Of a stretch of DNA of 64,000 nucleotides, positions 6,551 to 61,515 are shown piece after piece; within the stretch, counting starts at the first letter, position 1; every line of letters starts with the position of its first letter. Location: NCBI GenBank assembly GCA_003153435.1, contig PLYR01000104.1, forward strand, positions 2,796-66,795, in the 5' to 3' direction. This stretch comes from Bacteroidota bacterium. Its GTDB lineage: Bacteria > Bacteroidota > Bacteroidia > Palsa-965. The notes under the pieces were generated by a model, which ran no database searches, was not told the origin of the DNA, and saw only the letters and a program-made list of their open reading frames with translations. The translations under genes were made by a program, and so were the position numbers.

Positions 6551-8551
6551 ATGATACGCCCGTCTGCTCTCTTTTTAATATTTCTTTTTATAGGTTTTGC
6601 ATCCCATGCGCAGACGAGCACGGGTAAGAAGAAGAAATTCCTTGCCGATGATGCCGATCACAAAATATTTGATAAAGGTGAATATTACTTTGATCAGGGC
6701 AACTATGCACTGGCCATGGTTGAATATAAAAAACTCGAAGTTGAATTTCCGGAAGAAGGAGTGCTCATTTACAGGATCGGGGTATGTTATGTAAACTCCC
6801 ACGGAGAAAAAGAACGGTCACTCGATTATCTCGGAAAGCTGGATCCCGATAAATTCAGAAAAACAGATCTTCTTTTTTACCTGGGCAGGGCCAATCACCT
6901 GAACTATCAGTTTGACAAGGCAATAGATTTTTACACCCGGTTCAAAGAATCCAAACGTGGAAAAGAAAAGCAGAAAGTATGTGATCGGCTCATTGAAAAC
7001 TGCACAGCTGCCAAAGAACTCTATGCTCATCCGACCAAGGCAGAGATTGTAAACATCGGCCCTCCTGTGAATACCCAGTTCTCCGAATATGGGCCCACGG
7101 TGTCTTCTGATGAAGCTACCTTGATCTATACCTATCTCGGACCCCGTTGCAAAGGCGGGTTACAGAAAGAGCCCGGAGTGGCTGATTCTGCCGGACAATA
7201 TTTTGAGGATATCTTGGTGTCCCTGAAAGACAGTGCAGGGCATTGGACTTTTCCGGAGCCTATCGATGAGATCAATACCAATGGACCGGATGCTGCCATC
7301 TCGCTCTCAAACGACGGACAAAAATTATTGGTCTTTAAGAATTCAGCAGGTGATGTAGGCGATATCTACCTGAGTCGTCTGGAAGGCAGTAAATGGTCCG
7401 AACCTGAACCTCTGCGTGGAGATGTTAACACCACAGCCTGGGAAGGTAGTGCCTCCTTCTCCCCGGATGAGCACACACTCTATTTTTCAAGTGAGAGACC
7501 GGGCGGATTCGGAGGGAAAGATATTTACTCAGCCACCTTGCAGGATGGCGGCAGCTGGGGAAATGTCAAAAACCTGGGTCCAACCATCAACACAGAATAT
7601 GATGATGACAGCCCGATCATGCATCCCGATGGGGTTTCTCTCTATTTCAACTCGGTTGGACATACCAATATGGGAGGGAATGATATTTTTGTTTCCATGT
7701 TAAAGGAAGACAGCACCTGGTCAGAACCCGAAAACCTGGGCTACCCGGTCAATACTCCGGATGATGATTTGTTCTTTTTTCCGGTAGGTAATGGCGACCG
7801 GGGTTACTATTCCTCAGGTCAAAAAGGAGGTTTTGGACAACAGGATATCTACCGTGTGGATGGTCTGGGAAGGAAAGTAAAATTTGTCATGGTTAAAGGA
7901 GTCGTTACCGTAGATGATAAAGCAGTAGATGCGTCTATTATCGTTCTGAATGAGAAAAAAGGAACTCAGGTTGCTTTTCATTCCAACTCTGTGACCGGAA
8001 AATATCTGGTGAATCTGGCACCCAATACAAGCTTCAAACTACAATTTAAAGCACCCGGTTTTGAAGATCAGGTCAAAACCATGAATACGTTGAATGTTGA
8101 TTCTTTTATGGAATCGACTATGGATGTTCAATTTTATACAGAAGCATTTAAAAATAATCTCAAGCGGATACACGATTCCATTTCTCTTGTTAAGGATACT
8201 GCCAAAGCCAAAGCAGGTACAGCCGGCATGAGCCTCGCTGAAGTGATTGCGAAATATGGCGACTCGAAAGTAGAAGGGCTGGAGTTCCGGGTCCAGATCG
8301 GGGCCTTTAACTTAAAAGATAATTTTAATTACGGTGGCTTATTGAAACTGGGTAAGGTTCAGAAAAACAAAGGAGAGGATGGCATCACGCGCTTCACCAT
8401 TGGGCATAAAGCCACACTCAATGAAATCTATACCCTGAAGAAAAAAGTGATTGATGCCGGTATCAAGGATGCTTTTGTGGTGACATACTACCAGAAGAAA
8501 CGTATTTCCTTAAGAGAAGTCATCACTCAGAACTTATTTCAGAAGCCCTAG
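6551..8551 (+). CDS. envelope protein: signal peptide, TPR region, TolB-like PD40 beta-propeller repeats, CarboxypepD_reg-like domain and C-terminal SPOR (peptidoglycan-binding) domain
   Basis: Signal peptide ending ASHAQ. Several PD40-type repeats (DEATLIYTY..., DGQKLLVFKN..., DEHTLYFSSERPGGFGGKDIY, DGVSLYFNS...GGNDIF). A C-terminal SPOR-like block EFRVQIGAF...GIKDAFVV. The ORF track starts at a TTG at 6542; the first ATG is at 6551. It is a paralog of the giant gene at 54986-61144. Confidence 0.8.
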   Translation: MIRPSALFLIFLFIGFASHAQTSTGKKKKFLADDADHKIFDKGEYYFDQGNYALAMVEYKKLEVEFPEEGVLIYRIGVCYVNSHGEKERSLDYLGKLDPDKFRKTDLLFYLGRANHLNYQFDKAIDFYTRFKESKRGKEKQKVCDRLIENCTAAKELYAHPTKAEIVNIGPPVNTQFSEYGPTVSSDEATLIYTYLGPRCKGGLQKEPGVADSAGQYFEDILVSLKDSAGHWTFPEPIDEINTNGPDAAISLSNDGQKLLVFKNSAGDVGDIYLSRLEGSKWSEPEPLRGDVNTTAWEGSASFSPDEHTLYFSSERPGGFGGKDIYSATLQDGGSWGNVKNLGPTINTEYDDDSPIMHPDGVSLYFNSVGHTNMGGNDIFVSMLKEDSTWSEPENLGYPVNTPDDDLFFFPVGNGDRGYYSSGQKGGFGQQDIYRVDGLGRKVKFVMVKGVVTVDDKAVDASIIVLNEKKGTQVAFHSNSVTGKYLVNLAPNTSFKLQFKAPGFEDQVKTMNTLNVDSFMESTMDVQFYTEAFKNNLKRIHDSISLVKDTAKAKAGTAGMSLAEVIAKYGDSKVEGLEFRVQIGAFNLKDNFNYGGLLKLGKVQKNKGEDGITRFTIGHKATLNEIYTLKKKVIDAGIKDAFVVTYYQKKRISLREVITQNLFQKP

Positions 8552-8566
8552 ACCTAACGGAAGCTG

Positions 8567-10300
8567 ATGATCAAAAAAATCCTTTTCCTGATCTGCTTCC
8601 TTCACAGCATCCTGATTCATGCTCAAACCATTTATTATGTGGATGGGGCAGGAGGAAGCAATAGCAATACCGGCACTTCTCTCCTCCAGGCCTGGAAAAC
8701 AATCCAGAAGGCCTGCGACGCTGCTACTCCGAATAGCATTGTGGAAATCAAGGCCGGGACTTATTATGAAAATCTGGTTTTGAATGTAAGTGGCACAGCC
8801 GGAAATCCGATTACCTTCCGGAACTATCAGAATGACTCTGTTTTTATTGATGGTACCGGCACCGCCGGCACCACCCTGATGAGCATTACTGATCAGAATT
8901 ATCTGACTTTCGATAACCTCGTTTTTCAGAACCTTACCGTTAATAATGCCCAGGGAATTCTGGCTCAGACCAGCACTTCCGGAACTTCCACAGGGCTCCG
9001 TTTTCACAACCTCATCATCAGGCATATCAATTGGACTGCGAATGCATCCGCTATTCCCAATTCGAACGACAATGCCCAGGCATTTATTGTTTATGGTCTG
9101 GCAAACGGAATGACCCATTTGACTGTTGACAGCTGCCAGGTATACAGTAATATTCTTGGATTCAGCGAGGCCGTTTCAATCGATGGGAATATAAATGGGT
9201 TTACGGTTTCGAACTGCCTGGTCCATGATAATACCAATATTGGAATCCTTGCCGCTGGAAACTATGGAACCAGTCCTAATCCTTCCACTGATCATGCCCG
9301 GCATGGATTAATAACCCGAAACACCTGCTTTAATAATGTATCTCTTTATGCCACATCTGCTGGAATTTATATAGATGGGGGATGGAGTGTGGTGGTGGAT
9401 GGAAACAAATCCTATGGAAATGGATCGGGGATAGAGCTGGGTTGTGAACAGAATGGCACCACCGATAGCATTACCGTGAAGAACAATATAATCTATAATA
9501 ATCAGTATACAGGACTCGCCATTGGTGGTTATACCACCGCCACTACCGGGCAGGTGACCAACAGCCTCGTTAGGAATAATACTTTCTTCCATAACACCTT
9601 ACCTGCCAATAATACCGGTGAGATTGAAATGTCTAAAGCTTCGAACTGTACGATTGAAAATAATGTGTTTTACACCGATCCCCAAAACATTCTCTTTACA
9701 GCCGACAGCATTGCCCCTCAGTTAAATAATACATTCGATTATAACTGCTGGTTCACTCCTGGAAATGATTCTACGAACATCACGGTGCAATGGCTTCAAA
9801 CAAACTATACAACGTTTGGTGCCTATAGGGCAGGCACAAGCTTAGAGGCACATTCTTTCTATGCTGATCCCCTCCTTTCGAATGCAGTGCTTCCTCAGCC
9901 AGACTTACATCTGGTAAATCTCAGCCCCTGCATCAACCGGAGCAATCCTGCAACCGTCATTAGTGCAGGAGAAACAGATTTCGATGGAAACCCCAGACTA
10001 AACGGAGCCCGGGTGGATATAGGCGCCTATGAGTATGATTTGATTTCGGGGATGAAGGAAGATTATGTTTCTCGGGCGAACCTGGAGCTTTATCCGAATC
10101 CGGCTTCCGCGGCGATTTTTCTGAGAACTGAATCATCTATCAGAAATATCCAGCTTATCAGTATGGAGGGGGTTGTGTTGAGAGAATGGAATCATGTACC
10201 TAACCTCATTTCACTGGATGGGCTTCCGTCGGGAATCTATATGGTTAGATTGATAACCAAGGAAGGAGAAATTATCTGCCGTGTGTTCACCAGGCAATAA
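8567..10300 (+). CDS. right-handed parallel beta-helix (pectate-lyase-like fold) protein with T9SS C-terminal sorting domain
   Basis: Signal peptide (ILIHAQ), and many PbH1-type repeats rich in N and G (NNIIYNNQYTGLAIGG etc.). The C-terminal ~75 aa match a T9SS type-A CTD (LELYPNPASAAIFL...GIYMVRLITKEGEIICRVF). It starts 15 nt after the preceding gene. Confidence 0.75.
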   Translation: MIKKILFLICFLHSILIHAQTIYYVDGAGGSNSNTGTSLLQAWKTIQKACDAATPNSIVEIKAGTYYENLVLNVSGTAGNPITFRNYQNDSVFIDGTGTAGTTLMSITDQNYLTFDNLVFQNLTVNNAQGILAQTSTSGTSTGLRFHNLIIRHINWTANASAIPNSNDNAQAFIVYGLANGMTHLTVDSCQVYSNILGFSEAVSIDGNINGFTVSNCLVHDNTNIGILAAGNYGTSPNPSTDHARHGLITRNTCFNNVSLYATSAGIYIDGGWSVVVDGNKSYGNGSGIELGCEQNGTTDSITVKNNIIYNNQYTGLAIGGYTTATTGQVTNSLVRNNTFFHNTLPANNTGEIEMSKASNCTIENNVFYTDPQNILFTADSIAPQLNNTFDYNCWFTPGNDSTNITVQWLQTNYTTFGAYRAGTSLEAHSFYADPLLSNAVLPQPDLHLVNLSPCINRSNPATVISAGETDFDGNPRLNGARVDIGAYEYDLISGMKEDYVSRANLELYPNPASAAIFLRTESSIRNIQLISMEGVVLREWNHVPNLISLDGLPSGIYMVRLITKEGEIICRVFTRQ

Positions 10301-49585: not shown

Positions 49586-52500
49586 ATGCAAATTATCAAA
49601 AAGACTCTTCTTTTTTCCCTGATCTTCCTCTTCTCCGGATTACATATGTCTGCCCAAACGCAAGCAAAATCATTTACTGAGGACCCTGTCGTTTTTATTA
49701 AGGAACTGGTCGATTTTTTCGAAACCAGTGAAAAGAAGGAAGGAAAGACTTATATCAATGAGGTCTTCCAACCTGTGTGGCTGAAGATGGATGATTCAAA
49801 AAAAGCTTTCGTTTATAAGATGTGCAACGCAATGCTTAAAAAGCGAATGCATACCCCTGAGTTCAGGAGTTTGCTCAACGCAGTCATGGCGTTCGTGAAT
49901 GGCAGTCAGCCTGAGAAGAATTTTACCGAATGGCAGAGCTGCCTTGACAAACTTATAGCCGGCAAGGTTAGTAAGCCTTTTGTTGATTTCGTCGGCATGA
50001 GTGAGAACCTGTTTTCTTCAAACACCTTTTACAAATCACCTACTGCAGAGTGGAGGACAGAATCCAGTGATTACCAACTCTTTTGTGACAGTATTCCAAG
50101 GATTATTTTCAAAAGTCTGAATTTGCATGGTTACTCTAAGGGTGATAGCACCGTCATCCTCAATACTTCCGGAACATATTTCCCGACTCAGGGTAAGTGG
50201 GTTGGAAATGGAGGGAGGGTGACCTGGAAAAGATGCGGATTGGATGAAAATCAGGTTTATGCCGATATCAAGCACTATACGATTGTCTTGAAAAACCCAA
50301 GTTATGTAGCTGATTCCGTGACTTTTTATAATCAGATTTATTTCAAAGGAAAACCGCTCTTAGGCAGGCTCACAGAAAAAGTAGTTTTCGATGCTACAGA
50401 AAAAAACGCTGCTTTTCCGCGGTTTGATTCCTATAGCTCGAGGTACTCTATCAAAAACTTGTTCGAGAATGTTGACTTTGATGGAGGGTTTTCTCAGGCC
50501 GGAGGGCGTTTCCTGGGATCAGGATCCAAACAGGGTGAAGCCTCCGTTGTTTTTAAAAGAAAAGACAAAAAGTTTTTGGTAGTTCATTCCTCCGGATTCG
50601 TGATCACCAAAGAGAAACTTACCAGCGCTGATGCTGCTGTTACTTTTTATCTGGATAATGATTCCATCTGTCATCCCGATGTGAACTTCAAGTATATCAT
50701 TGCTGATAAAAAAGTTACCCTCTACAGAAGTGATGAAGGAGCCTCCCAGAGTCCATTCACCAATTCATTCCATAATATCGATATGTGGTTTGAGCAGCTC
50801 ACGTGGAAAATTGAAGAGCCAAGGATAGAGATCAGTGCTGTGCCAGGAAGCAGTACAAGTGAGGCAACTTTCCGATCCAAAACCTACTTCAGACGCCTCA
50901 TTTGGGATAAATTTCAGGGAATCGGTACGGTTAATCCTCTACCGTTAATCAAGGATTTCGTGGTTAAAGGAAATGGTGGGAAAAAAGATTTTACGATTAC
51001 TCAGTTAGCCGGTTATTTGAAGCAAAATCCTCAGGATCTAAGGATTGAGATGCTAAAGTTTTCTTTTTATGGACTGGTCTCGATGGATCTGGAAACAGAT
51101 AAGGTGGTTGTGAGAGACAAACTCTTCAACTTTATTTCCAATGCACAGAACAGGCTGGACTATGATATTATAGAATTTAATTCCAGTGTTCCTCCTTCTT
51201 CACTGAATGGAAGTATCAATTTGCTCAACTATGATATGACTATCAAGGGTGTTGCGCAGATCCAAATGAGTGACTCTCAGAATGTGGTTATATACCCGAA
51301 GAACCGAGAAATTATCCTTAAGAAAAACAGAAATTACACTTTTGCTGGTAGGGTAGAGGCTGGAAAATTCGAATTTTTCGGAAAGGAATTTTCATTCGAT
51401 TACGAGCAGTTTAAAGTTAACCTTAACAACGTGGATTCCCTGAGGATGATTGTAGACGGGAAAGGAGTGGATGCTTTTGGAAAGGCTATCCAGGTTCCCT
51501 GTAAGACGGTGGTGGAAGATATTAACGGAGATCTGCTGATTGACCATCCGGGAAATAAGTCGGGTATTTTTAGTGCCAATCTTGCCCAATATCCAATATT
51601 TAACAGCAAGAAAGAGTCATTTGCTTATTACGACAAGAAAAATATTCAGAAAGGGGTTTATAAACGGGAGAAATTCTACTTCAAGCTGGAACCTTTCTCA
51701 ATCGATTCCCTGGATAACTTCTCGAACTCAGGTCTGAACTTTAAAGGGAAAATGACATCCGGAGGAATTTTTCCGGACTTTCAGGAAGCACTTACATTGC
51801 AACCCGATTATTCTCTCGGTTTCGTCAGATCAGCGCCTCCTGGAGGGTTTCCGATGTATGGAGGCAAGGGTAAGTTCAATGATCAGATCCGATTGAGTAA
51901 TGAGGGGATGAAGGGGGATGGAACCATTGATTATGTAACATCTACCACTACATCCAAGAATTTTTTATTCTTCCCCGACTCCACCAATGCCGCAGCAGAA
52001 AAGTTCGATGTAAAGGAAGTGAAGGGTGGGAAAACAGAGTTTCCAACGGTTGCCGGGAAGAACATCTATATGCACTGGATGCCTAAAAATGACGTGATGC
52101 AGACCTTTGACAAGGATTCCACATTCAGTATGTATAAGGCACAGACTAAATTCCATGGAAGGCTTGATCTCACTCCAAACCTCCTTTCAGGCGATGGAAG
52201 AATCGATTTCGGCAATGCGGAGATGAAAGCCCCTCTGATGAAATTCAAGCAGAACAAGTTTGATTCAGATACGGCTGATTTTGCACTTAAATCGGACGAC
52301 TTCAAGGCGCTTAGTTTTGAAACAAACAATGTCAAATCCCATATCGACTTCGATACCCGTACCGGAGATTTTTCTTCGAATGGAAAGGGATCTATCGTAA
52401 AGTTCCCTGTGAATCAGTATATCTGTTTTATGGACAAGTTCCGGTGGTATATGGATAAGGAAACGATCGAACTCAATGGTGGAAAAGCAGCTCCCAAGGT

Positions 52501-54058
52501 TGGGGAATACACAGACCTGAATCTGGAAGGGCCTGAATTTATCTCTACTCACCCCAAACAGGATTCTTTACGTTTCGTTGCTCCTTCTGCAAAATATGAC
52601 CTCAAAAACCATATCATTTCAGCCAAGGATGTGGTTTACATTAATGTGGCCGATGCGAGGATCTATCCTGATAAAGGGGATGTAACCATTGAAAAGGATG
52701 CTTATATCGAACCCCTTACCAATGCCAAGATCCTGGCTAATACGGTTACAAAACACCATAAAATGTACAACGCGAATGTCAATATTTTCGCTAAGAAGAG
52801 TTACTCAGGTTCCGCTTCCTACGATTATATAGATGAAACCAAAGCCAAGCAGACCCTTTATTTCTCGAATGTTCAGGTAGATACTACGGCACAAACCTAT
52901 GCAGAAACAAAAGTTGCAGAGGATGCAAAATTCGCGCTCAGCCCGCATTTTGATTTTAATGGAAAGGTTAAGCTGCTTGCCTCTGAGGAGTTCCTGATTT
53001 TCGATGGGGTAACACGGATACAGCATTCCTGCGAAACGGTTAACAAAACCTGGTTCCAGTTCAAGGCTCAGATCAATCCGACTGCCATTCAGATTCCGAT
53101 TAGCGCTGACCCGGTTGATAATAACGGAAAACCAATTGCCGTAGGGGTAATGAGTACGACCGATTCAACACATGTCTACTCTGCATTCGTTTCCCGCAGA
53201 AAGAACAAGAACGATGTGGAAGTACTGACTGCCGACGGGTTCCTGATCTTTGATAAGAATACAGGGGAATATAAGGTATCCAATAAAGAGAAACTGATCG
53301 AAAGAAACCTCCCTGGAAACTATGTGAGCCTCCATGTAAATACCTGTGTGCTCTATGGTGAAGGAAAGATGAACCTTGGGGCGGATCTTGGAATGGTAAA
53401 GGTGACACCGGTAGGTACAGCCACTCATTATCTGGTTCCTGATTCTACTGCCTTTGACCTGATTGTTGCAACAGATTTCTTCTTTGACGACGGGCTAATG
53501 GATAAGATTTCCGATGCCATAACGGCCAAAACAGACCTAACCGCCACGGATTTTTCAAGGCCGGTGTATGAGAAAGGGCTAAGGGAACTGATCGGAAAGG
53601 AAAAAGCGGACAAGGCCATTTCGGATATCAATCTTTATGGGAAAATCAAAAAATTCCCGGATGAGCTGAAGACCACTATTTTGTTTACTGATGTCAAGAT
53701 GAAGTGGAATAAGAAGAGCCGGTCTTTCATCTCCACCGGGAAACTGGGTATAGGAAACATCAACAAGAATCAGATTAATAAGCTGATAGATGGAAAAATA
53801 GCGATAGAAAGGAAGAAAACTGGGGATATTCTCCATATTTACCTGCAGGTTGAAGATGGAAAATGGTATTATTTTGAGTATAACCGAGGAATTATGTCCG
53901 CAATTTCATCTGATGAGGCCTGGAATCAGGTTATTAAGGACATGAAATCGGATAAAAGAGAAACCAAGGGGGATAAAGGGCAGAGTTACCGCTTTATTCT
54001 GGGACAACCCAGCGCTCCTAAAATTTGGCTTAAAAGAGTTGGATGTGATGGTTGTTAG
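49586..54058 (+). CDS. very large (1490 aa) secreted hypothetical protein, beta-rich, no recognised domain (weak AsmA/TamB-like compositional resemblance)
   Basis: Signal peptide ...HMSAQTQ. The whole length is rich in short beta-strand-like segments (G/K/F/D-rich). It sits immediately upstream of plsY. Confidence 0.65.
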   Translation: MQIIKKTLLFSLIFLFSGLHMSAQTQAKSFTEDPVVFIKELVDFFETSEKKEGKTYINEVFQPVWLKMDDSKKAFVYKMCNAMLKKRMHTPEFRSLLNAVMAFVNGSQPEKNFTEWQSCLDKLIAGKVSKPFVDFVGMSENLFSSNTFYKSPTAEWRTESSDYQLFCDSIPRIIFKSLNLHGYSKGDSTVILNTSGTYFPTQGKWVGNGGRVTWKRCGLDENQVYADIKHYTIVLKNPSYVADSVTFYNQIYFKGKPLLGRLTEKVVFDATEKNAAFPRFDSYSSRYSIKNLFENVDFDGGFSQAGGRFLGSGSKQGEASVVFKRKDKKFLVVHSSGFVITKEKLTSADAAVTFYLDNDSICHPDVNFKYIIADKKVTLYRSDEGASQSPFTNSFHNIDMWFEQLTWKIEEPRIEISAVPGSSTSEATFRSKTYFRRLIWDKFQGIGTVNPLPLIKDFVVKGNGGKKDFTITQLAGYLKQNPQDLRIEMLKFSFYGLVSMDLETDKVVVRDKLFNFISNAQNRLDYDIIEFNSSVPPSSLNGSINLLNYDMTIKGVAQIQMSDSQNVVIYPKNREIILKKNRNYTFAGRVEAGKFEFFGKEFSFDYEQFKVNLNNVDSLRMIVDGKGVDAFGKAIQVPCKTVVEDINGDLLIDHPGNKSGIFSANLAQYPIFNSKKESFAYYDKKNIQKGVYKREKFYFKLEPFSIDSLDNFSNSGLNFKGKMTSGGIFPDFQEALTLQPDYSLGFVRSAPPGGFPMYGGKGKFNDQIRLSNEGMKGDGTIDYVTSTTTSKNFLFFPDSTNAAAEKFDVKEVKGGKTEFPTVAGKNIYMHWMPKNDVMQTFDKDSTFSMYKAQTKFHGRLDLTPNLLSGDGRIDFGNAEMKAPLMKFKQNKFDSDTADFALKSDDFKALSFETNNVKSHIDFDTRTGDFSSNGKGSIVKFPVNQYICFMDKFRWYMDKETIELNGGKAAPKVGEYTDLNLEGPEFISTHPKQDSLRFVAPSAKYDLKNHIISAKDVVYINVADARIYPDKGDVTIEKDAYIEPLTNAKILANTVTKHHKMYNANVNIFAKKSYSGSASYDYIDETKAKQTLYFSNVQVDTTAQTYAETKVAEDAKFALSPHFDFNGKVKLLASEEFLIFDGVTRIQHSCETVNKTWFQFKAQINPTAIQIPISADPVDNNGKPIAVGVMSTTDSTHVYSAFVSRRKNKNDVEVLTADGFLIFDKNTGEYKVSNKEKLIERNLPGNYVSLHVNTCVLYGEGKMNLGADLGMVKVTPVGTATHYLVPDSTAFDLIVATDFFFDDGLMDKISDAITAKTDLTATDFSRPVYEKGLRELIGKEKADKAISDINLYGKIKKFPDELKTTILFTDVKMKWNKKSRSFISTGKLGIGNINKNQINKLIDGKIAIERKKTGDILHIYLQVEDGKWYYFEYNRGIMSAISSDEAWNQVIKDMKSDKRETKGDKGQSYRFILGQPSAPKIWLKRVGCDGC

Positions 54059-54213: not shown

Positions 54214-54867
54214 ATGATCACACCAATTGCAGTTTCTGCATTGATTTTTGCCTACCTCCTCGGTTCAATCCCTTCTGCAGTATGGGTTGGTAAAATCTTT
54301 TATAAAGTGGACGTACGGGAGTTTGGCAGCGGTAATGCCGGTGCCACGAATACTTTCCGAGTGTTGGGAAAGAGAGCTGGGGTTCCAGTCCTCATACTCG
54401 ATATTCTAAAGGGATGGATTGCGGTAAGCATGACTTATTATCTGGTAGATGACCTCCCTGGAACAGAGCCATTTGTAAACATGCAGATTGTTCTCGGAAT
54501 CGCTGCTCTTTTTGGCCATATCTTCCCGGTATTCGCAGGGTTTCGCGGAGGAAAGGGGATTGCGACTCTTCTTGGAATTATGCTTGCTATTCAACCTGGA
54601 GCTTCTTCCATTGCAATCTTTATCTTTTTAGCAGTATTCCTTATTTCCGGTTATGTGTCGCTCAGTTCCATGGTTGCCGGTTTCAGCTTTCCTTTCATCA
54701 TTATGGTTCTTTACAATACCAGCGTAGTGCCTTCCCTACTTATCTTTTCTTTCCTTATTGCTATCCTGATCCTGATTACTCACCAGAAAAACATCGAGCG
54801 CCTCATTAAAAGGCAGGAGAGTAAAACACGCATCCTACGTAAAAAAGACGGAGTGCTTGTAAAGTAA
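54214..54867 (+). CDS. plsY: glycerol-3-phosphate acyltransferase PlsY (acyl-phosphate dependent)
   Basis: N-terminus LLGSIPSAVWVGKIFYKVDVREFGSGNAGATN and the PlsY membrane topology. Confidence 0.9.
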   Translation: MITPIAVSALIFAYLLGSIPSAVWVGKIFYKVDVREFGSGNAGATNTFRVLGKRAGVPVLILDILKGWIAVSMTYYLVDDLPGTEPFVNMQIVLGIAALFGHIFPVFAGFRGGKGIATLLGIMLAIQPGASSIAIFIFLAVFLISGYVSLSSMVAGFSFPFIIMVLYNTSVVPSLLIFSFLIAILILITHQKNIERLIKRQESKTRILRKKDGVLVK

Positions 54868-54985
54868 TCGGCCTACCCTGTAATTATGGAAAATCCCTCT
54901 GTTCAGCATCTTTGCATCAAATTGCCTAACTTTGTTGGACTCATTAGACGCACAACAGGCCGTTTCGATTATTGATGTGAAATGT

Positions 54986-57900
54986 ATGAATAAAAGGATT
55001 TTTTCTCATATCATTCTTTTGTGGGGAATTATCTTTTTCTTACAGATTCCTCTTCATGCCCAAAATGATCTGAGTTCAGAGGAAGCGCTTCGAAAGGAAG
55101 CCCAGAAAGTCTTTGATGATGAGGACTACCCAACAGCCCTGAAATACTACCTGCGCCTTCTAAGCGCCAATATTAAAGATCCTCTCTATAACTACCGCTA
55201 TGGGGTTTGCCTGCTCGAAGCCTCTGCCGATAAAGAAGAGGCCATAAAATATATGGAGAAGGCTGTTAAAGACCCTTCACTCGACAAAGAAGTTTTTTAC
55301 TATTACGGTCGTGCGCTCCAGCTTAGTTATCGTTTCAACGACGCCATTAACGCCTATTCCAAATACAAATCACTCGTTTCAGAATCCAAAGCAAAAAAAC
55401 TGCAGATCGATCATCTCATCGAAACCTGTCATAACGGGAAAACCCTTCTTCGAAAAATAACTGATATTCAAGTAATTGATAAGAAAAATCTGGAAGAAAA
55501 AGATTTCTTCAGATCCTACGACCTGTCTGATATCGGCGGTCGCTTGCTCATCAAGCCGGATGATTTCCGCACCGGGCTGGATAAAAAGAAAAAGGATAAC
55601 TCCATCATTTTCCTTTCTCCCGATAAGAATGAAATCTACTTTTCCAGCTATGGAAGCAGTGACGAAAACGGGAAAGACATCTATGTAATTACAAGGCTAC
55701 CCAGTGGAGAATACGGCAAACCGGTATCTCTTGGATATCCTATCAACACGGAATTTGATGAAGATTATCCATTTCTGCATCCCAATGGAATGGTGCTTTA
55801 TTTTGCCTCCAAGGGACATAACAGCATGGGTGGATATGATATTTTCAAATCTGAAAGAAACTCTGAAACCGGAGCCTGGGGAAAGCCTGTCAACCTTGAT
55901 TTTCCAATCAGCACCCCGGATGATGACATCCTTTTTGTTACCGATAAAGACGAAAAGACGGCTTATTTTGCTTCCCGTAGGGCGAGCGAAAAAGGGAGGA
56001 TCGATGTATACCATATCAATCTCCAGCGAAAACCGGTGGATGTTTGTGTCTTTAAAGGAACCTTCTTGCCATTGGATGGAAAGAGTAAGGCCGCAAAGAT
56101 TACAGTCAAAAATGTAGATATCAACGAAGTTGAAGCGGTACTAAGTGCGAGTGAAGCGCTGGGGGAGTATACCTACAATCTTCCTAACGGAGGAAAATTT
56201 GTAGTCACTGTGGAGACTGCAGAAGGGGATATCCAATCGGATGTTCTGATGATTCCTCAGCAATTTGAAACTGTTCCGATCCGTCAGGAAATTACATACA
56301 TCGATGGAAAGCTGCATGTAAACACCTTCTTCGGGGAAAACCATGGGGAAGATGATAAATACAGTTTGGTTACAGAACTGATTAAGGAGAAGGCCAGGAT
56401 GGATGTGAACCTATCAAAAGCGGCAGTTGAAGCTACACAATCAGCAACTGAAAAAGCGGACTCTGCACGGGTTGCAGATTCAACGCTCACTGCCTCCAAA
56501 CTTCCTCAAAAGCATTTGTCGAACGAAGACCTTATAAAAATAGCTGATCAGGATGCAGCGGATCTGGACAAAGAGGCTAAGGATTTAAGAGAAGCGGCTG
56601 ATAAGGCTCTACAGATTGTTAATGACAAGAATATCAAAGTCCAGGACGAAGGTAAAAAGCTTCAGGAAGCGAATGATGCTTTAACCGCCGCTACCGATGC
56701 AGGAGATAAACAGATTCAGGCAGCCAGGGTGGATTTACTGCAAAATCAGCGAAACAATGCGGAAATCGAAGCTGTGGGTGCCAACAACTTTTTCAATACA
56801 CTCGATTCAGAAGCTTCCCGGAAGAAGAAGGAAGCTGATCTGAGTAAACAATATGCTGCTGATCTGGCAGCTGCCATAAAGTCGAATTCAAAAGATGCAA
56901 TGACAAAGCTGGATGCACAAAAAGAGGAGCTGGACAAGTTTACTGAAGATAAATCAAAAGAGGATGACCCGGTGACAGCCATCCGCAAAGAAGCCGCCGC
57001 CAAACAGAAAGAAGAGAACTCAGCCAGAGAGGAATCAGCTTCTATCAGAGAGGAAATTAAAGGTATGGAAGCGGAAGTAGAAAACCTGGGCAGAGAAGAA
57101 GGGGCCACCACCAATCCTCAGCTCAAGGAAGGGCTAAAGGGACAGATTAGTGGCTTAAAAGAAGACATCATTAAAAAGAAAAACGACCTTACTACGAATG
57201 ACCTGAAAGTTGGAAAATTGCAGAAAGAAGCAGAAAACCTGAATAGTCAGGCATCGTTAGTGTATCAAATGAATGAACAGATCAAATCCGGTCAGGTGCC
57301 GGTTAGTTCAGAGGCCATTGATAAAGATAAACTCAATCAACAGATCAGTACTTATCATCCCAAAGTACTTTCAACCACTGTTAACTCTGACCAGGCTCTT
57401 GTTCATGATACTTCCAGAGTCATTACAGAAACACCAGGTGATAGTACTTTAAGATCTTCAGTAGTAAAAGAGGATAAAGTCAAAAAGGACTCAGAAAAAG
57501 ACAGTCAGGGTAAATATGTAGAACAGGAAGCCTCCTTTACCAAGGCCATTGCTGATGCCGATAACAAAACAGGAGATCTCGAAAAAGAACAGGCCAAAGC
57601 AGAGGCTTACAAACAATGGTCTGATGCAATCAGTCACCGTATAGAGGACAAGAACACCGAACTGAAAGCCACCACAGACCCAACAAGACAAAGTCAGTTG
57701 AATGAGGTCATCACCGCACTCACCAAGGAAAAAGAAGAGAAACAACACCAGGCAGATGAAAGTCTTGACAAAGTAAACAAACTTAAACAGGCTCCACCGG
57801 TTGCGGCATCCGAGGCTGATTATGCCCGTCATTACGAAAACAGAATCGCTACTCTGGATTCTACCTCTGGCAAGCCGGCTCAAGCCCAGGCAAAGGCCGA

Positions 57901-60900
57901 AATCTATAAAGATTGGGCCTCTGCGATCCGGAATGATGCTACCAAGAAGAAGACGGAGATGGAAGCAAGTAAGGACCCTTCCGAAAAAGCTAAACTAAAA
58001 GAAGAAATTGCCCAGCTTGAAAAAGATGCAGAAACAAAAGAAACAACCCAAAAAGAATTACTCGCCTCTGTTCCTGTAAAACAAAAGGAGGAAGACCATC
58101 AAACAGAAGAGCCTGCTACTGTAAATGCCGCAGTGTATAAAAACAAGCTCACTGCCGTGGAGTCCTTGCCAACACAGGAATCTAAAGACTCCGCCAAGGC
58201 ACAGATATACCAGGAATGGGCGGCTTCTTTAAATCAGGATTTGAAAACCCGGAAAGAAAAACTGACCAGCATCATCGAGCCCGACAAGAAGAAGGCAGAA
58301 GAAAAGGCAATTTCTGAGTTGGAAACGGAAGTAACAAGTAAAAACGAAGAAGCAGCCAGATTAACGGAAATTGTGGCCGATCGCAAAACACGCCCGGTGA
58401 ATACGACTGCTCTCGCACCGACCGACACTGCATCTCAAACAAGAGCCCATTCTACCGAACCGGCTGTAACCAAAACGGGTACTGAGCCAGCCGTAGTTAA
58501 AACAACAGCAGTCCTGCCTCCGGTTAAGAAGGCCGTTGACCCTTCTTATCCCTTAACCTCCCCGTCTTCCGTTGCAACCAATGAAGAGCGGAAGCAGCTT
58601 GAAACGGAAGCCGCAATTCTGAAAATCCGGGCCGACACAGCAAGGGCCCAGGCCGATAAACTCTCAGGCCCGGAGCATGATGCCAAACAAAAGGAATCGG
58701 AAGATCTTTACAAGGCTTTCAGCATGAAGGAGTATGATGCTTCCAATGCAGGGGCTAAGGTGAGCTTGATGGAATATGGGGCTAATGAACAGAAGCTGAA
58801 TCAATATGAATTAAAGACCAATACCTCCACAGATCCCGCACTTACCCAGGCGGAGACCTTTACAGATGCAGCCAAAGCATTTTATGCTAAAGCCAAAGAA
58901 CAAAGAGAAGCTGCCCAAAAAACGGATAACCCGAAATTAAGGGAGGAGAATATTAAGCTCGCTGAAGAAAATGAAAACCATGCCATAGAGAGCCAGTCGA
59001 AAGCGCTCAAAATATACGAATCGTCCTTTCCTGATCTGGTGATTCGTGCCGCTGCTGAACCCCGGCATGTCCGTGTAGACAGCACCCTGGATGATGATGC
59101 AATCATTGCAGCCAGAGTAGCTGCTGCTAAAAAAGAACATGATGCCGCAACCGGTCACAAAGATGAGAATGGGCATAAGGATGATGTTAAAACAGCTCCC
59201 GTAGTCGTTGCTAGTCATACAGACGAAAACAAGACTGGAGTAGGTACGGATCACACCGTAGTTACGACTTCGCATACGGATGAAAATAAGAACCCCGGTC
59301 ACACCGAAGCGGTGGAAACGAAACACACGGATCATACGGAAGCTTCAGAGCCAAACCATACAGGGGGAAGCGACAGCGCTAAATCAGAACATGCCGCGAT
59401 TGTTGTACCAAGCCATACAAGAGAAGAAGATTCCGTAGCAACAGCAAGGAAAGTGGAAGTAACTGCAAAAGTAGCTACTCTGAAAGCAGAAGAAGATGTT
59501 TTCCTGGAAGCAGCTACAGCTAATAATCATCAGGCCGATGATGTTCAGATTGAAGGACAGCGACTGGCGAGGGAATCGGGCAAAATGAATAATGACAATT
59601 CGAATATGCCGGATGATGCAAGCAAGGAAGCGGCGAGGACACTATCGAAGGAATATGAGGAACGTGCAAAGCAGAATTTCGCTAAGGCAGATTCTATCAG
59701 AGCGGTAGCGCAGGACTTTAACCGAAAGGCACAAGAGAAAAAGAAAGAACGGGAAGACCTGATGGTATCTCTGGATCCGAACTATAAGCGATCAACACCT
59801 GTCAAAACGGATAAGACAGAAGTGGGTTCAATAACAATAAATAAGGAAACACCTGTAGGAGATAAAAATCCCGTTTCGGAACCGAGAACAGGCACTAAAC
59901 TGGTGGGTGGCTTGGTCAAGGAAACATTCCTGATCGCGACTTCAGCGTCTGTGCCAAAGCAGATCGAGCTGGATCCTAAGATGCCCGAAGGTCTTGTGTT
60001 TAAGGTACAGATTGGGGCTTTCAAACGTACACTGAGTGGTGATGAATTCAAGGGGGTGCGCCCGCTTACCGGGGAGACCACTACCAAAGGATTTATCCGT
60101 TATACCGCCGGCCTCTTCTCCAAATTTGAATCAGCCGATAAAGCTAAAAAATCAATTCAGGCACTTGGATTCAAGGATGCCTTTGTGGTGGCATTCCTAA
60201 ATGGAAAACGCATTTCTGTTGCCGATGCGCAGACGATGATCAGGACCGGAGAAATTCCTGCATCGGTGCTTGGAGGCGGAACTACACCTCCGGTTGCTGA
60301 TGGTGGTAATCATACTGTGGCAGATGGAGGCAATCACACTCCAGCAGTAGAAAGTCATCAAGGGAATGATCAGCTGCCGGCAGTCACCCATACAAACCCG
60401 GGTGCTATTGCCAAGTCGACTCCGGTTACAGGGGTGAGTGGATTGTTTTATGCAGTTCAGATCGGGGTTTATTCCAAACCGGTGAGCAATGAGAAAATTT
60501 ATGGGATTCAGCCTTTGAATACCGAAACGCTGGAAAATGGAAATCTAAGATACACCAGTGGTCAATACGCAGATCCTCTCAAGGCAGAGGAAGCTAAGCG
60601 GAAGATTGTGGAACTGGGCATTAAGGATGCATTCGTGGTGGCTTATAAGGATGGGAAACGGGTAGGGCAGGGAGGTGCAGCAAGAGCGGTGACACCTGCT
60701 GCTGTTCCTGCGAAGAAATCTGAAACGGAACCCGGTGAAGTAAAACCGAATACCCCCGCCATAGATAAAAAACTTTCACACCACAAAAGCGTTATTCCAA
60801 CGGCATCTACTGTAACCGATGTTAAACCTGGTGATTTCAGCCGTTATGATAACAAAGAAATTCCGATGGTGAAAGGGGATACTGGTGTTGTGTTTAAAGT

Positions 60901-61144
60901 TCAGATCGGTGCATTCAAGGAGCAGGTTCCGATTGAGATTGCTAATAAATTCATTTTACTGGCCAAAAGAGGAGTCAAAAACTTCACCGATGAAAACGGG
61001 TTAACTGTTTATACCATCGGCATCGTAACCAGCTATGATGATGCCGTCTTCCTCAAAGAAGAGGCTATAGCCAAAGGTATTCCGGATGCCTTCATCCTGG
61101 CCTACAAGGACGGGAAAAAGGTATCTGTTTCCGATGTGAAATAA
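54986..61144 (+). CDS. giant (~2050 aa) envelope protein: signal peptide, TPR, TolB-like PD40 repeats, CarboxypepD_reg-like domain, ~1300-aa Lys/Glu/Ala-rich repetitive coiled-coil-like region, three C-terminal SPOR domains
   Basis: The N-terminal ~450 aa are paralogous to the gene at 6551-8551 (YRYGVCLLEA / YRIGVCYVNS; YGRALQLSYRFNDAINAYSKYK / LGRANHLNYQFDKAIDFYTRFK; PD40 repeats DKNEIYFSS..., NGMVLYFASKGHNSMGGYDIF, EKTAYFASRRASEKGRIDVY). The three SPOR blocks begin FKVQIGAFKRT, YAVQIGVYSKP and FKVQIGAFKEQ, each ending ...KDAF(V/I)(V/L)A. The ATG at 54986 replaces the track's TTG at 54932. Confidence 0.8.
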   Translation: MNKRIFSHIILLWGIIFFLQIPLHAQNDLSSEEALRKEAQKVFDDEDYPTALKYYLRLLSANIKDPLYNYRYGVCLLEASADKEEAIKYMEKAVKDPSLDKEVFYYYGRALQLSYRFNDAINAYSKYKSLVSESKAKKLQIDHLIETCHNGKTLLRKITDIQVIDKKNLEEKDFFRSYDLSDIGGRLLIKPDDFRTGLDKKKKDNSIIFLSPDKNEIYFSSYGSSDENGKDIYVITRLPSGEYGKPVSLGYPINTEFDEDYPFLHPNGMVLYFASKGHNSMGGYDIFKSERNSETGAWGKPVNLDFPISTPDDDILFVTDKDEKTAYFASRRASEKGRIDVYHINLQRKPVDVCVFKGTFLPLDGKSKAAKITVKNVDINEVEAVLSASEALGEYTYNLPNGGKFVVTVETAEGDIQSDVLMIPQQFETVPIRQEITYIDGKLHVNTFFGENHGEDDKYSLVTELIKEKARMDVNLSKAAVEATQSATEKADSARVADSTLTASKLPQKHLSNEDLIKIADQDAADLDKEAKDLREAADKALQIVNDKNIKVQDEGKKLQEANDALTAATDAGDKQIQAARVDLLQNQRNNAEIEAVGANNFFNTLDSEASRKKKEADLSKQYAADLAAAIKSNSKDAMTKLDAQKEELDKFTEDKSKEDDPVTAIRKEAAAKQKEENSAREESASIREEIKGMEAEVENLGREEGATTNPQLKEGLKGQISGLKEDIIKKKNDLTTNDLKVGKLQKEAENLNSQASLVYQMNEQIKSGQVPVSSEAIDKDKLNQQISTYHPKVLSTTVNSDQALVHDTSRVITETPGDSTLRSSVVKEDKVKKDSEKDSQGKYVEQEASFTKAIADADNKTGDLEKEQAKAEAYKQWSDAISHRIEDKNTELKATTDPTRQSQLNEVITALTKEKEEKQHQADESLDKVNKLKQAPPVAASEADYARHYENRIATLDSTSGKPAQAQAKAEIYKDWASAIRNDATKKKTEMEASKDPSEKAKLKEEIAQLEKDAETKETTQKELLASVPVKQKEEDHQTEEPATVNAAVYKNKLTAVESLPTQESKDSAKAQIYQEWAASLNQDLKTRKEKLTSIIEPDKKKAEEKAISELETEVTSKNEEAARLTEIVADRKTRPVNTTALAPTDTASQTRAHSTEPAVTKTGTEPAVVKTTAVLPPVKKAVDPSYPLTSPSSVATNEERKQLETEAAILKIRADTARAQADKLSGPEHDAKQKESEDLYKAFSMKEYDASNAGAKVSLMEYGANEQKLNQYELKTNTSTDPALTQAETFTDAAKAFYAKAKEQREAAQKTDNPKLREENIKLAEENENHAIESQSKALKIYESSFPDLVIRAAAEPRHVRVDSTLDDDAIIAARVAAAKKEHDAATGHKDENGHKDDVKTAPVVVASHTDENKTGVGTDHTVVTTSHTDENKNPGHTEAVETKHTDHTEASEPNHTGGSDSAKSEHAAIVVPSHTREEDSVATARKVEVTAKVATLKAEEDVFLEAATANNHQADDVQIEGQRLARESGKMNNDNSNMPDDASKEAARTLSKEYEERAKQNFAKADSIRAVAQDFNRKAQEKKKEREDLMVSLDPNYKRSTPVKTDKTEVGSITINKETPVGDKNPVSEPRTGTKLVGGLVKETFLIATSASVPKQIELDPKMPEGLVFKVQIGAFKRTLSGDEFKGVRPLTGETTTKGFIRYTAGLFSKFESADKAKKSIQALGFKDAFVVAFLNGKRISVADAQTMIRTGEIPASVLGGGTTPPVADGGNHTVADGGNHTPAVESHQGNDQLPAVTHTNPGAIAKSTPVTGVSGLFYAVQIGVYSKPVSNEKIYGIQPLNTETLENGNLRYTSGQYADPLKAEEAKRKIVELGIKDAFVVAYKDGKRVGQGGAARAVTPAAVPAKKSETEPGEVKPNTPAIDKKLSHHKSVIPTASTVTDVKPGDFSRYDNKEIPMVKGDTGVVFKVQIGAFKEQVPIEIANKFILLAKRGVKNFTDENGLTVYTIGIVTSYDDAVFLKEEAIAKGIPDAFILAYKDGKKVSVSDVK
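60293..60340 (+). repeat. 24-nt imperfect tandem duplication (x2) encoding VADGGNHT-VADGGNHT in the linker between SPOR1 and SPOR2
   Basis: Read directly: gttgctgatggtggtaatcatact / gtggcagatggaggcaatcacact. Confidence 0.6.
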
Positions 61145-61215: not shown

Positions 61216-61515
61216 ATGAAAAAGCATCCTTTCTTCCAAAACCCTGCTCCGGAAGTTGAGCTTCTGGAGAAAGAAGAAGTTGCAGTCAGTCCTCAGCATG
61301 CCATAATCCTCTATAACGATGACGTGAATACCTTTGAACATGTCATCGAGATGCTTATTACCTATTGCGACCACCAACCTGAACAAGCCGAACAATGTGC
61401 CTATATTGTTCATTATAACGGAAAGTGTTTAGTCAAAAACGGATCGTATGATGATCTGGTACCGGTGTGTTCTGCCTTGCTCGACCAGGGTCTGAGCGCC
61501 AAGATTGAAGCCTGA
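61216..61515 (+). CDS. clpS: ATP-dependent Clp protease adaptor ClpS
   Basis: ClpS core (VILYNDDVNTFEHVIEMLITYC..., 100 aa). The ATG at 61216 is preceded by AGGAG. The track's TTG start at 61186 is rejected. Confidence 0.8.
   Translation: MKKHPFFQNPAPEVELLEKEEVAVSPQHAIILYNDDVNTFEHVIEMLITYCDHQPEQAEQCAYIVHYNGKCLVKNGSYDDLVPVCSALLDQGLSAKIEA

Follow-up and report, generated by a model that had tools for sequence, protein, structure and literature searches.

A giant Bacteroidota envelope protein with a PorE-type front end and three divergent SPOR domains

Two paralogs with a common front end

Two open reading frames in the window, the 64,000-nucleotide stretch analyzed here, encode related proteins of very unequal size. 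Both frames were confirmed, at 54932/54986..61144 (+) and 6542/6551..8551 (+); in the former, 54932 is an in-frame TTG at which the mechanically called frame opens, and the ATG lies at 54986. The longer gene was described in an earlier, sequence-only reading as lying between plsY and clpS, and both neighbors were found. The features of the locus, up to the end of the shared front end, and the paralog are as follows.

54214..54867, + strand: plsY, upstream of the giant gene (Pfam G3P_acyltransf)
54986..61144, + strand: giant gene, 2052 aa plus stop; an identical protein (P0001) and long homologs are on record
54986..55063, + strand: signal peptide of the giant, aa 1-26, type I cleavage between LHAQ and ND, no lipobox cysteine
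55064..55480, + strand: TPR region of the giant, aa ~27-165 (Pfam TPR_16 E 0.004, below threshold)
55589..56023, + strand: three PD40 beta-propeller repeats of the giant, aa 202-346 (Pfam PD40 E 9e-7)
56033..56335, + strand: CRD-like beta-sandwich of the giant, aa ~350-450 (AlphaFold2 strands at pLDDT 84-90)
61216..61515, + strand: clpS, downstream of the giant gene (NCBIfam ClpS models)
6551..8551, + strand: small paralog, 666 aa, with signal peptide, TPR, five PD40 repeats, CRD, short linker and one SPOR domain

Signal peptides and cleavage sites of both proteins were read by eye. As proposed earlier, the giant starts with a signal peptide, MNKRIFSHIILLWGIIFFLQIPLHAQ, which contains no cysteine and is followed by ND. 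By the same reading, a lipobox cysteine at or near the cleavage site is absent from the giant, the small paralog and most homologs, and the cysteine-free 'AQ' cleavage pattern recurs in homologs of both families.

Homology between the two proteins extends through the entire front end. BLASTP aligns their TPR regions (residues 12-165 of the giant with 7-168 of the small paralog, E 3e-15) and their propeller/CRD regions (180-401 with 274-492, 35% identity, E 2e-33). In the alignment of giant homologs, column identity is 50% across the TPR region and rises to 72-77% in the PD40 region, the best-conserved part of the protein. Jackhmmer counts three PD40 repeats in the giant (202-346) and five in the small paralog (167-437), where a CRD follows at aa 448-518 (Pfam CarboxypepD_reg E 2e-4). 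The Pfam CarboxypepD_reg model finds no match in the giant itself; its CRD is assigned by alignment with the corresponding region of the small paralog and by the AlphaFold2 model, for which transthyretin is among the Foldseek matches (TMt 0.55).

The sequence-only reading had linked this front end to the TPR-PD40-CRD-OmpA_C proteins of Bacteroidota, and the curated models bear this out. The NCBIfam CHU_0125_OmpA and PorE models match the small paralog at E 5e-64 and 3e-58 (217 and 197 bits) and the giant, over aa 201-405, at E 4e-28 and 2e-23 (98 and 82 bits), although neither protein reaches the whole-protein cut-offs of PorE (NF052230, 600) or CHU_0125 (NF053607, 620). The small paralog possesses the full PorE/CHU_0125 front end of TPR, five-repeat propeller and CRD, covering profile positions 21-502; the giant possesses it only in part. 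Neither protein gave an OmpA match, and beyond position ~500 the profiles find no counterpart.

How close are these proteins to known systems? In PorE of Porphyromonas gingivalis (PG1058 / PGN_1296), signal sequence, TPR, PD40 beta-propeller and CRD follow one another as they do here. PorE has five repeats whose coordinates nearly coincide with those of the small paralog, likewise ends in a C-terminal peptidoglycan-binding module, and is likewise specific to Bacteroidota. It differs in carrying OmpA_C and a lipobox where the giant and small paralog carry three and one SPOR domains, respectively, and no lipobox; the giant also has only three repeats and adds a helical region of ~1160 aa. The CHU_0125 family of OmpA-like outer membrane integrity proteins (Cytophaga hutchinsonii) provides the best-scoring model for both proteins and has the same front-end architecture, but its OmpA_C portion (positions ~500-639) has no counterpart here. 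TolB of the Tol-Pal system (TIGR02800) resembles both proteins in its PD40-type repeats and in connecting outer-membrane components with the wall from within the periplasm, but it has an N-terminal domain absent here and six repeats rather than five or three; its model gives the small paralog a marginal 19.8 bits (cut-off 343) and does not match the giant. The earlier label of a 'TolB-like propeller' is too strong for the giant, whose three repeats are modeled at moderate confidence (pLDDT 50-79, AlphaFold2). For the same reason, a PorE-like propeller and binding to a PorP-like barrel are uncertain in the giant.

Divergent SPOR domains at the C-terminus

Both proteins were proposed to end in SPOR domains in place of OmpA_C, the giant with three copies and the small paralog with a single one, and this assignment stands.

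59987..60241, + strand: SPOR domain 1 of the giant, aa 1668-1752, above the Pfam SPOR threshold
60434..60673, + strand: SPOR domain 2 of the giant, aa 1817-1896, homologous to block 1, with the VQxG glutamine
60884..61141, + strand: SPOR domain 3 of the giant, aa 1967-2052, in which the first helix segment is longer
8276..8527, + strand: SPOR domain of the small paralog, aa 576-659 (Pfam SPOR alone E 0.08)

With its cut-off of 21 bits, Pfam SPOR (PF05036) recognizes block 1 (24.3 bits) and the whole giant (21.5 bits). Searched singly, blocks 2 and 3 give no Pfam match and the block of the small paralog stays below threshold; their assignment draws on profile and fold comparisons. Across 40 blocks of the family, 30 match at E <= 1, the best at 4.4e-7, and relatives reach 98 bits. 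When a profile of these 40 sequences was compared to PDB sequences, the CwlC SPOR domain ranked first (E 2e-6). The block of the small paralog is a member of that alignment, scores 103 bits with a block profile, and is matched by each of the three blocks of the giant in BLASTP (E 1e-8 to 8e-7). The fold is RNP-like: four antiparallel strands form a sheet, and the helices lie on one of its sides. The conserved SPOR glutamine (VQIGAF, second residue) hardly varies across the block alignment, and all 119 full-length homologs of the giant have exactly three C-terminal blocks, with this residue at least 90% conserved at each of the three positions. It corresponds to the strand-1 glutamine RlpA Q270 / FtsN Q251, whose role has been described (PMC6895207). 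The C-terminal blocks are thus divergent but genuine SPOR domains of a subtype that Pfam mostly misses. In the same PDB comparison, the block profile also matches 7adk_B, 'Lipoprotein', at E 0.005.

Blocks 1 and 2 retain a first helix of only about 4 residues, and an extra beta-alpha extension is present in every block, features that set them apart from typical SPOR domains; ligand specificity could differ as a consequence. Otherwise, the RNP-like fold and the VQxGaF strand with its glutamine are common to CwlC, FtsN, DamX, DedD, RlpA and CHU2221 (the SPOR domain of the last was reportedly tested in E. coli), as is the C-terminal placement behind a long stretch that is flexible or of low complexity. 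In typical SPOR proteins a single such domain follows an inner-membrane anchor or enzyme domain, whereas the giant has three positionally conserved copies behind a PorE-like module.

This SPOR subtype occurs in about 10,000 proteins that represent clusters at 50% identity, and the small paralog has 4519 homolog clusters at E <= 1e-5. Public databases list members of the giant and small families under the names 'hypothetical' or 'PD40 domain-containing', many with precomputed PF05036 and PF07676 matches. Literature searches that paired SPOR with PD40, with Bacteroidetes or with type IX secretion returned no description of this architecture, consistent with the earlier suggestion that the combination of TolB-like and SPOR domains is undescribed.

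A candidate envelope tether and its gene neighborhood

Why combine a PorE-type front end with SPOR domains? PorE-type proteins are known wall anchors of Bacteroidota outer-membrane machines, with a propeller that binds the outer-membrane barrel PorP, and SPOR domains are known readers of amidase-processed septal wall. With this front half and these domains, the giant probably ties an outer-membrane partner to bare glycan strands. On balance, we think it probable that the giant and small paralog are periplasmic tethers that run from such a partner to denuded peptidoglycan. Both would be Sec-exported, non-lipidated periplasmic PorE / CHU_0125 paralogs with SPOR in place of the OmpA_C anchor. The N-terminal TPR, PD40 and CRD domains would form a protein-docking module, and the SPOR domains would bind glycan strands stripped of stem peptides; the tether would thereby link an outer-membrane-associated partner with the amidase-processed ('denuded') wall, a form of wall that is concentrated at septa and new poles. 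With its three positionally specialized SPOR domains on flexible linkers, the giant would bind multivalently. Septal localization is predicted by analogy, since SPOR domains elsewhere target septal denuded glycans (PMC6895207; bioRxiv 10.1101/2022.07.01.498525).

The gene neighborhood provides no functional clue. In related loci, clpS lies directly downstream of the giant gene in 37 of 55 cases (median gap 108 bp); plsY lies upstream in 17 of 64 and is conserved only in a subset. Given that ClpS is a cytoplasmic adaptor, we read its adjacency as operon history and not as function. The neighbors of the small paralog vary among relatives. In the loci examined, no type IX secretion, division or amidase genes stand beside the family genes; clpS, plsY and housekeeping genes are found instead.

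Could the giant be a dedicated division factor of these Bacteroidia, recruited to the septum by SPOR while a PorE/TolB-like module pulls the outer membrane inward, in a role like that of Tol-Pal or DamX/FtsN and close to the septal picture of the sequence-only reading? All characterized SPOR domains have septal denuded glycans as their target (PMC6895207), three copies would favor avid septal retention, and CHU_0125 has been described as a Pal-like lipoprotein and Pal homolog (PMC5891637). We nevertheless consider this unlikely: dcw-cluster, fts, amidase and tol-pal genes are absent nearby in every locus examined, TolB membership fails, with a sub-threshold score in the small protein only, and PG1058/PorE mutants had normal envelope architecture, unlike tol-pal mutants (PMC5053529).

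Distinctly unlikely, too, is that the two proteins are true functional PorE paralogs in type IX secretion or gliding, anchoring PorP/SprF-type barrels and type B cargo with SPOR as an alternative wall anchor. PorE and CHU_0125 are indeed the closest curated models, Bacteroidota species carry 2-13 PorE homologs each (PMC5053529), and the genome encodes type IX secretion cargo, with one cargo gene 16 bp downstream of the small paralog. This adjacency occurs in close relatives only and is lost in more distant ones; no porP/sprF-like gene adjoins the giant or small gene in the loci examined, where the family neighborhoods, unlike PorE, show no link to type IX secretion genes; and OmpA_C with its peptidoglycan-binding motif, essential for PorE function, is missing from both proteins.

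The helical middle region, distribution and implications

Between the CRD and the SPOR domains of the giant lies a region of ~1160 aa (481-1640), folded here by AlphaFold2 from a 36-sequence alignment, with conservation taken from a 118-sequence alignment.

56522..57289, + strand: conserved unit of five long helices, aa 513-768 (pLDDT about 80-91)
57521..58393, + strand: three mutually homologous repeats of ~95 aa and three helices each, aa 846-936, 945-1039 and 1049-1136, with motif AKAxxYxxW...DP
58562..59026, + strand: conserved four-helix unit, aa 1193-1347 (pLDDT 81-92)
59063..59905, + strand: non-conserved His/Thr/Glu-rich linker, aa ~1360-1640, ~280 aa

The sequence-only reading described a charged, repetitive insert of ~1300 aa. 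Its Lys/Glu/Ala-rich composition is confirmed (A 13%, K 12%, E 11%), but the insert is shorter, and repetition is local, restricted to the three ~95-aa units. The model contains 19 helices of at least 11 residues, arranged as a five-helix unit, the three repeats and a four-helix unit, with disordered linkers between them. Helices in the five-helix unit span 56, 62, 21, 46 and 58 residues (20-49% identity among homologs; no Pfam family was found), and those in the four-helix unit 33, 49, 29 and 32 (20-26% identity, 98-99% occupancy). The same three-helix pattern occurs three times in aa 846-1136. BLASTP self-comparison finds no repeats at E <= 0.01; kinship emerges only with homolog profiles, each of which recovers the other two repeats at E 2e-13 to 5e-23. 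Copy number in homologs ranges from 1 to 6. The linker falls to 3-8% identity and 33-50% occupancy. Pfam finds nothing in the middle alone (Nif11 at E 1.2), and Foldseek of a 1200-residue model against PDB returns only generic helical, WD-repeat and transthyretin-like matches (query TM <= 0.1), which say nothing about the helical units. An NCBIfam 'head-tail connector' match at aa 1361-1421 (23 bits, cut-off 24) was rejected as spurious because it falls within the non-conserved low-complexity linker.

The middle had also been read as a very long coiled-coil fiber, and an intermolecular coiled coil forming long periplasmic fibers or a lattice would suit its few Pro and Gly, low hydrophobicity and almost entirely helical prediction. 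Such a structure is very improbable. Uninterrupted heptad-repeat helices of hundreds of residues are absent from the model: helices of 11-62 residues alternate with turns of 2-6 in five units at pLDDT 80-92, as is typical of intramolecular bundles, and three disordered breaks and the unconserved linker interrupt them. At a rise of 0.15 nm per residue, a continuous helix of 1160 residues would measure about 170 nm, far beyond periplasmic width. As modeled, the region consists of helical bundles on flexible strings and not of one coiled coil. Within the tether we favor, it may act as a modular spacer or interaction platform, its length tuned by repeat number.

That the gene is an assembly artefact, a chimera or a decaying pseudogene can practically be dismissed: the identical protein on record comes from independent contigs, at least 119 full-length homologs (1750-2336 aa) share its architecture, relatives occur in at least 594 GTDB species, GC is even (0.42-0.48), and the only two DNA tandem repeats are trivial (24 and 49 bp). 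The product is a real and widely conserved envelope protein of uncultured Bacteroidota; its best matches are all MAGs, and its close relatives all come from MAGs and metagenomes.

Might the giant be the defining part of an envelope device not yet described, belonging to a large clade of uncultured Bacteroidia? We regard this as quite improbable, but such a device would be a length-adjustable periplasmic tether, with 1-6 three-helix repeats and flexible linkers, gripping denuded septal glycans by three specialized SPOR domains and capturing an outer-membrane barrel by its half-propeller and TPR. Where the wall is split, it would then direct the outer membrane to invaginate or surface machinery to be placed, without Tol-Pal or a lipid anchor.

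The giant and small paralog belong to a large, conserved family that joins a PorE-type front end with SPOR domains. The ~95-aa three-helix repeat, which is unmodeled and variable in copy number, and the divergent SPOR subtype both merit follow-up, and the three SPOR domains, each kept distinct, offer a natural case for differences in SPOR ligand or affinity. With relatives of the giant in so many species and such a wealth of SPOR-subtype representatives, many uncultured Bacteroidia would therefore place an outer-membrane-associated module by how far the wall has been processed, and not just by whether wall is present.

A real and widespread family with three architectures

Two genes, one giant and one small, had been picked out in a sequence-only reading as sharing several regions, with the giant gene lying between plsY and clpS. 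The open reading frames, the shared regions and the order of the flanking genes (plsY upstream, clpS downstream) were all found as described.

6542 or 6551 to 8551, + strand: small paralog
8567 to 10300, + strand: T9SS cargo gene (beta-helix, choice-of-anchor Q domain, Por_Secre_tail), 16 bp past the small paralog
49586 to 54058, + strand: 1490-aa secreted protein, upstream of plsY and the giant gene
54932 (TTG) or 54986 (ATG) to 61144, + strand: giant gene, 2052 aa from the ATG at 54986
61216 to 61515, + strand: clpS, directly 3' of the giant gene

The giant starts with a typical signal peptide (cleaved between …LHAQ and ND), with no cysteine close to the cut. By BLASTP, the TPR regions of the two proteins align (E 3e-15), as do their propeller/CRD regions (35% identity, E 2e-33), and each of the three C-terminal blocks of the giant matches the small protein's only such block (E 1e-8 to 8e-7). 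Within the window, SPOR/PorE-like domains of this type are confined to these two genes.

Is the giant an artefact of assembly, as the same reading had asked? A protein identical to it is recorded from other contigs, its 120 best homolog clusters span 1750-2336 aa save for two shorter or partial entries, and the gene is free of meaningful tandem repeats in its DNA and uniform in GC; the giant is therefore no artefact. These clusters come from Bacteroidota MAGs and metagenomes and bear only "hypothetical" or "PD40 domain-containing" annotations. With each GTDB species represented by one genome, a scan detected relatives of the giant in at least 594 species, the best 80 all being MAGs. We conclude that the giant and small proteins form a real, conserved, uncharacterised family.

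Three architectures were identified: ~660 aa with one SPOR domain, to which the small gene of the window belongs; ~940 aa with three; and ~2000 aa with a helical middle and three. Exactly three C-terminal blocks are present in all 119 full-length giant homologs. In other MAGs, three-SPOR (936-939 aa) and one-SPOR (659-665 aa) paralogs lie near-tandem (locus L083, 3921-8998; L085, 3927-8980), parted only by a small opposite-strand DUF2196 gene. Giants of up to ~3150 aa also exist (P0279, P0361). Four to six tandem blocks of the same SPOR subtype occur in proteins of 690-1190 aa (among P0241, P0242, P0244, P0247, P0337 and P0369), some of which have thrombospondin type 3 repeats in place of a detectable PorE-like front end.

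SPOR domains behind a PorE-like front end

Are the C-terminal blocks SPOR domains? The Pfam SPOR threshold is passed by block 1 only (24.3 vs 21); blocks 2 and 3 searched alone give no Pfam SPOR match, and the block of the small protein alone reaches E 0.08. Compared with all PDB sequences, a profile built from 40 block sequences (A1) has as its top match the SPOR domain of CwlC (1x60; E 2.2e-6), pairing VQIGAF with VQIGAF. Pfam SPOR is matched by 30 of the 40 blocks at E <= 1 and scores up to 98 bits in relatives with four to six blocks, and the VQxG glutamine is conserved at >=90% at each block position. This glutamine is the sole highly conserved SPOR residue and touches denuded MurNAc (PMC6895207). 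The CwlC match, the Pfam matches and the conserved glutamine answer the doubt that the sequence-only reading had raised against its own domain calls, which are right for both proteins: the blocks are SPOR domains.

Blocks at the same position are 60-70% identical across species and blocks at different positions 30-36%, even inside one protein. Blocks 1, 2 and 3 are thus positional orthologs, copies from an old triplication that are each under a constraint of their own. Searching with A1 recovers 10,266 representative proteins at E <= 1e-3, 4,341 at <= 1e-10 and 1,278 at <= 1e-30. The linker joining SPOR domains 1 and 2 contains ADGGNHT two times over, encoded by a 24-bp tandem repeat (60299-60347; two copies at 76% match).

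For both proteins, the top curated models are CHU_0125_OmpA (NF053607) and then T9SS PorE (NF052230). Matches to the profiles extend over positions ~21-500 for the small protein (217 and 197 bits, respectively) and only ~272-476 for the giant (98 and 82 bits), all far under the cut-offs of 620 and 600 bits because the OmpA_C part is missing. Five PD40 repeats in the small protein (167-437) almost coincide with the five reported at 167-433 in PG1058/PorE (PMC5053529). The giant has three (202-346), with only moderate AlphaFold confidence, so that "TolB-like propeller" overstates its case; a CRD-like beta-sandwich follows (pLDDT 84-90). PorE is a lipoprotein, whereas a lipobox is absent from both the giant and small families; this makes both proteins PorE-like paralogs and not PorE itself. 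Heath et al. demanded all four PorE domains in their homolog collection (PMC5053529), which left SPOR-ended relatives out by design. The small family has a conserved KKKKK tract a few residues past the signal-peptide cleavage site (6551-6650; homologs P0121-P0145), which might stand in for the missing lipid anchor via anionic lipids.

The middle region of the giant

The insert, put at about 1300 residues in the earlier reading, comes to ~1160 (481-1640). It is Pro/Gly-poor and ~40% charged (A 13%, K 12%, E 11%), and no part of it matches a Pfam family. Conservation along a 118-sequence alignment of giant homologs is patchy.

Residues 520-800: 20-49% identity
Residues 840-1040: 19-30% identity
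Residues 1200-1360: 20-26% identity
Residues 1360-1640: essentially unconserved

An AlphaFold2 model of residues 161-1360, built with 36 homologs, has a mean pLDDT of 73.8, with helical units at ~80-92.

Residues 513-768: five long helices
Residues 840-935, 943-1037 and 1048-1135: three units of three helices each
Residues 1193-1347: four helices
Residues 470-509, 792-842 and 1137-1187: disordered stretches

The profile of each three-helix unit recovers the other two (E 2e-13 to 5e-23), and homologs carry one to six copies. The predicted region is one of helical bundles on flexible strings, a variable-length modular spacer rather than one continuous coiled coil; in the model, the short turns and the lengths of the helices suggest packing inside the bundles. 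With short-turn units, disordered stretches and three-helix repeats, the coiled-coil fibre proposed earlier is overstated, and assembly into an intermolecular fibre is highly improbable.

Within the non-conserved linker, residues ~1390-1480 (~59150-59430) are His/Thr/Asp/Glu-rich with loose SHTDENK-like repeats, and could possibly bind metal. The coding strand at 56800-59800 has a very high AT skew of +0.30 to +0.38, vs ~0.1 in flanking genes, owing to Lys/Glu/Ala-rich, purine-rich codon usage.

Gene neighbourhood and possible roles

ClpS is a cytoplasmic protease adaptor. Its gene comes directly after that of the giant in 37 of 55 related loci (L001-L082; median gap 108 bp), even where giant identity is ~32%. 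In 17 of 64, plsY lies upstream of the giant gene, frequently accompanied by the 1490-aa protein, for which neither Pfam nor NCBIfam gave a match; some of the related loci share this arrangement at 37-55% identity, and the closest relative (L003) at 84%. Adjacency of the small paralog and the cargo gene is retained in a 77%-identical relative (L087) and lost in the more distant L083 and L085.

What would such proteins do? In the best-supported reading they are periplasmic linkers. The front end would dock onto a partner associated with the outer membrane; PorE itself binds PorP through its propeller and cannot do without wall binding (PMC12773672). The SPOR domains would grip denuded glycan strands, putatively at the septum, with the helical region of the giant as a putative spacer. 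A dedicated role in cell division or outer-membrane constriction, with which the SPOR domains are consistent, is unlikely; a PorE-like role in T9SS or gliding, consistent with the front end and the cargo gene beside the small paralog, is slightly less probable again. No T9SS core, porP/sprF, division or amidase genes lie near either gene in the loci examined, and context therefore does not discriminate between functions.

We found no publication describing SPOR domains combined with a PorE-like front end; the sequences themselves can already be found in public databases. The family is carried by uncultured bacteria, and there is no sign here of a new principle. The biology of the family is plausible and its SPOR part cheaply testable, and it is best filed with the PorE/CHU_0125 envelope anchors, with SPOR swapped for OmpA_C and with an as yet unmodelled region of helical repeats added in the giant.
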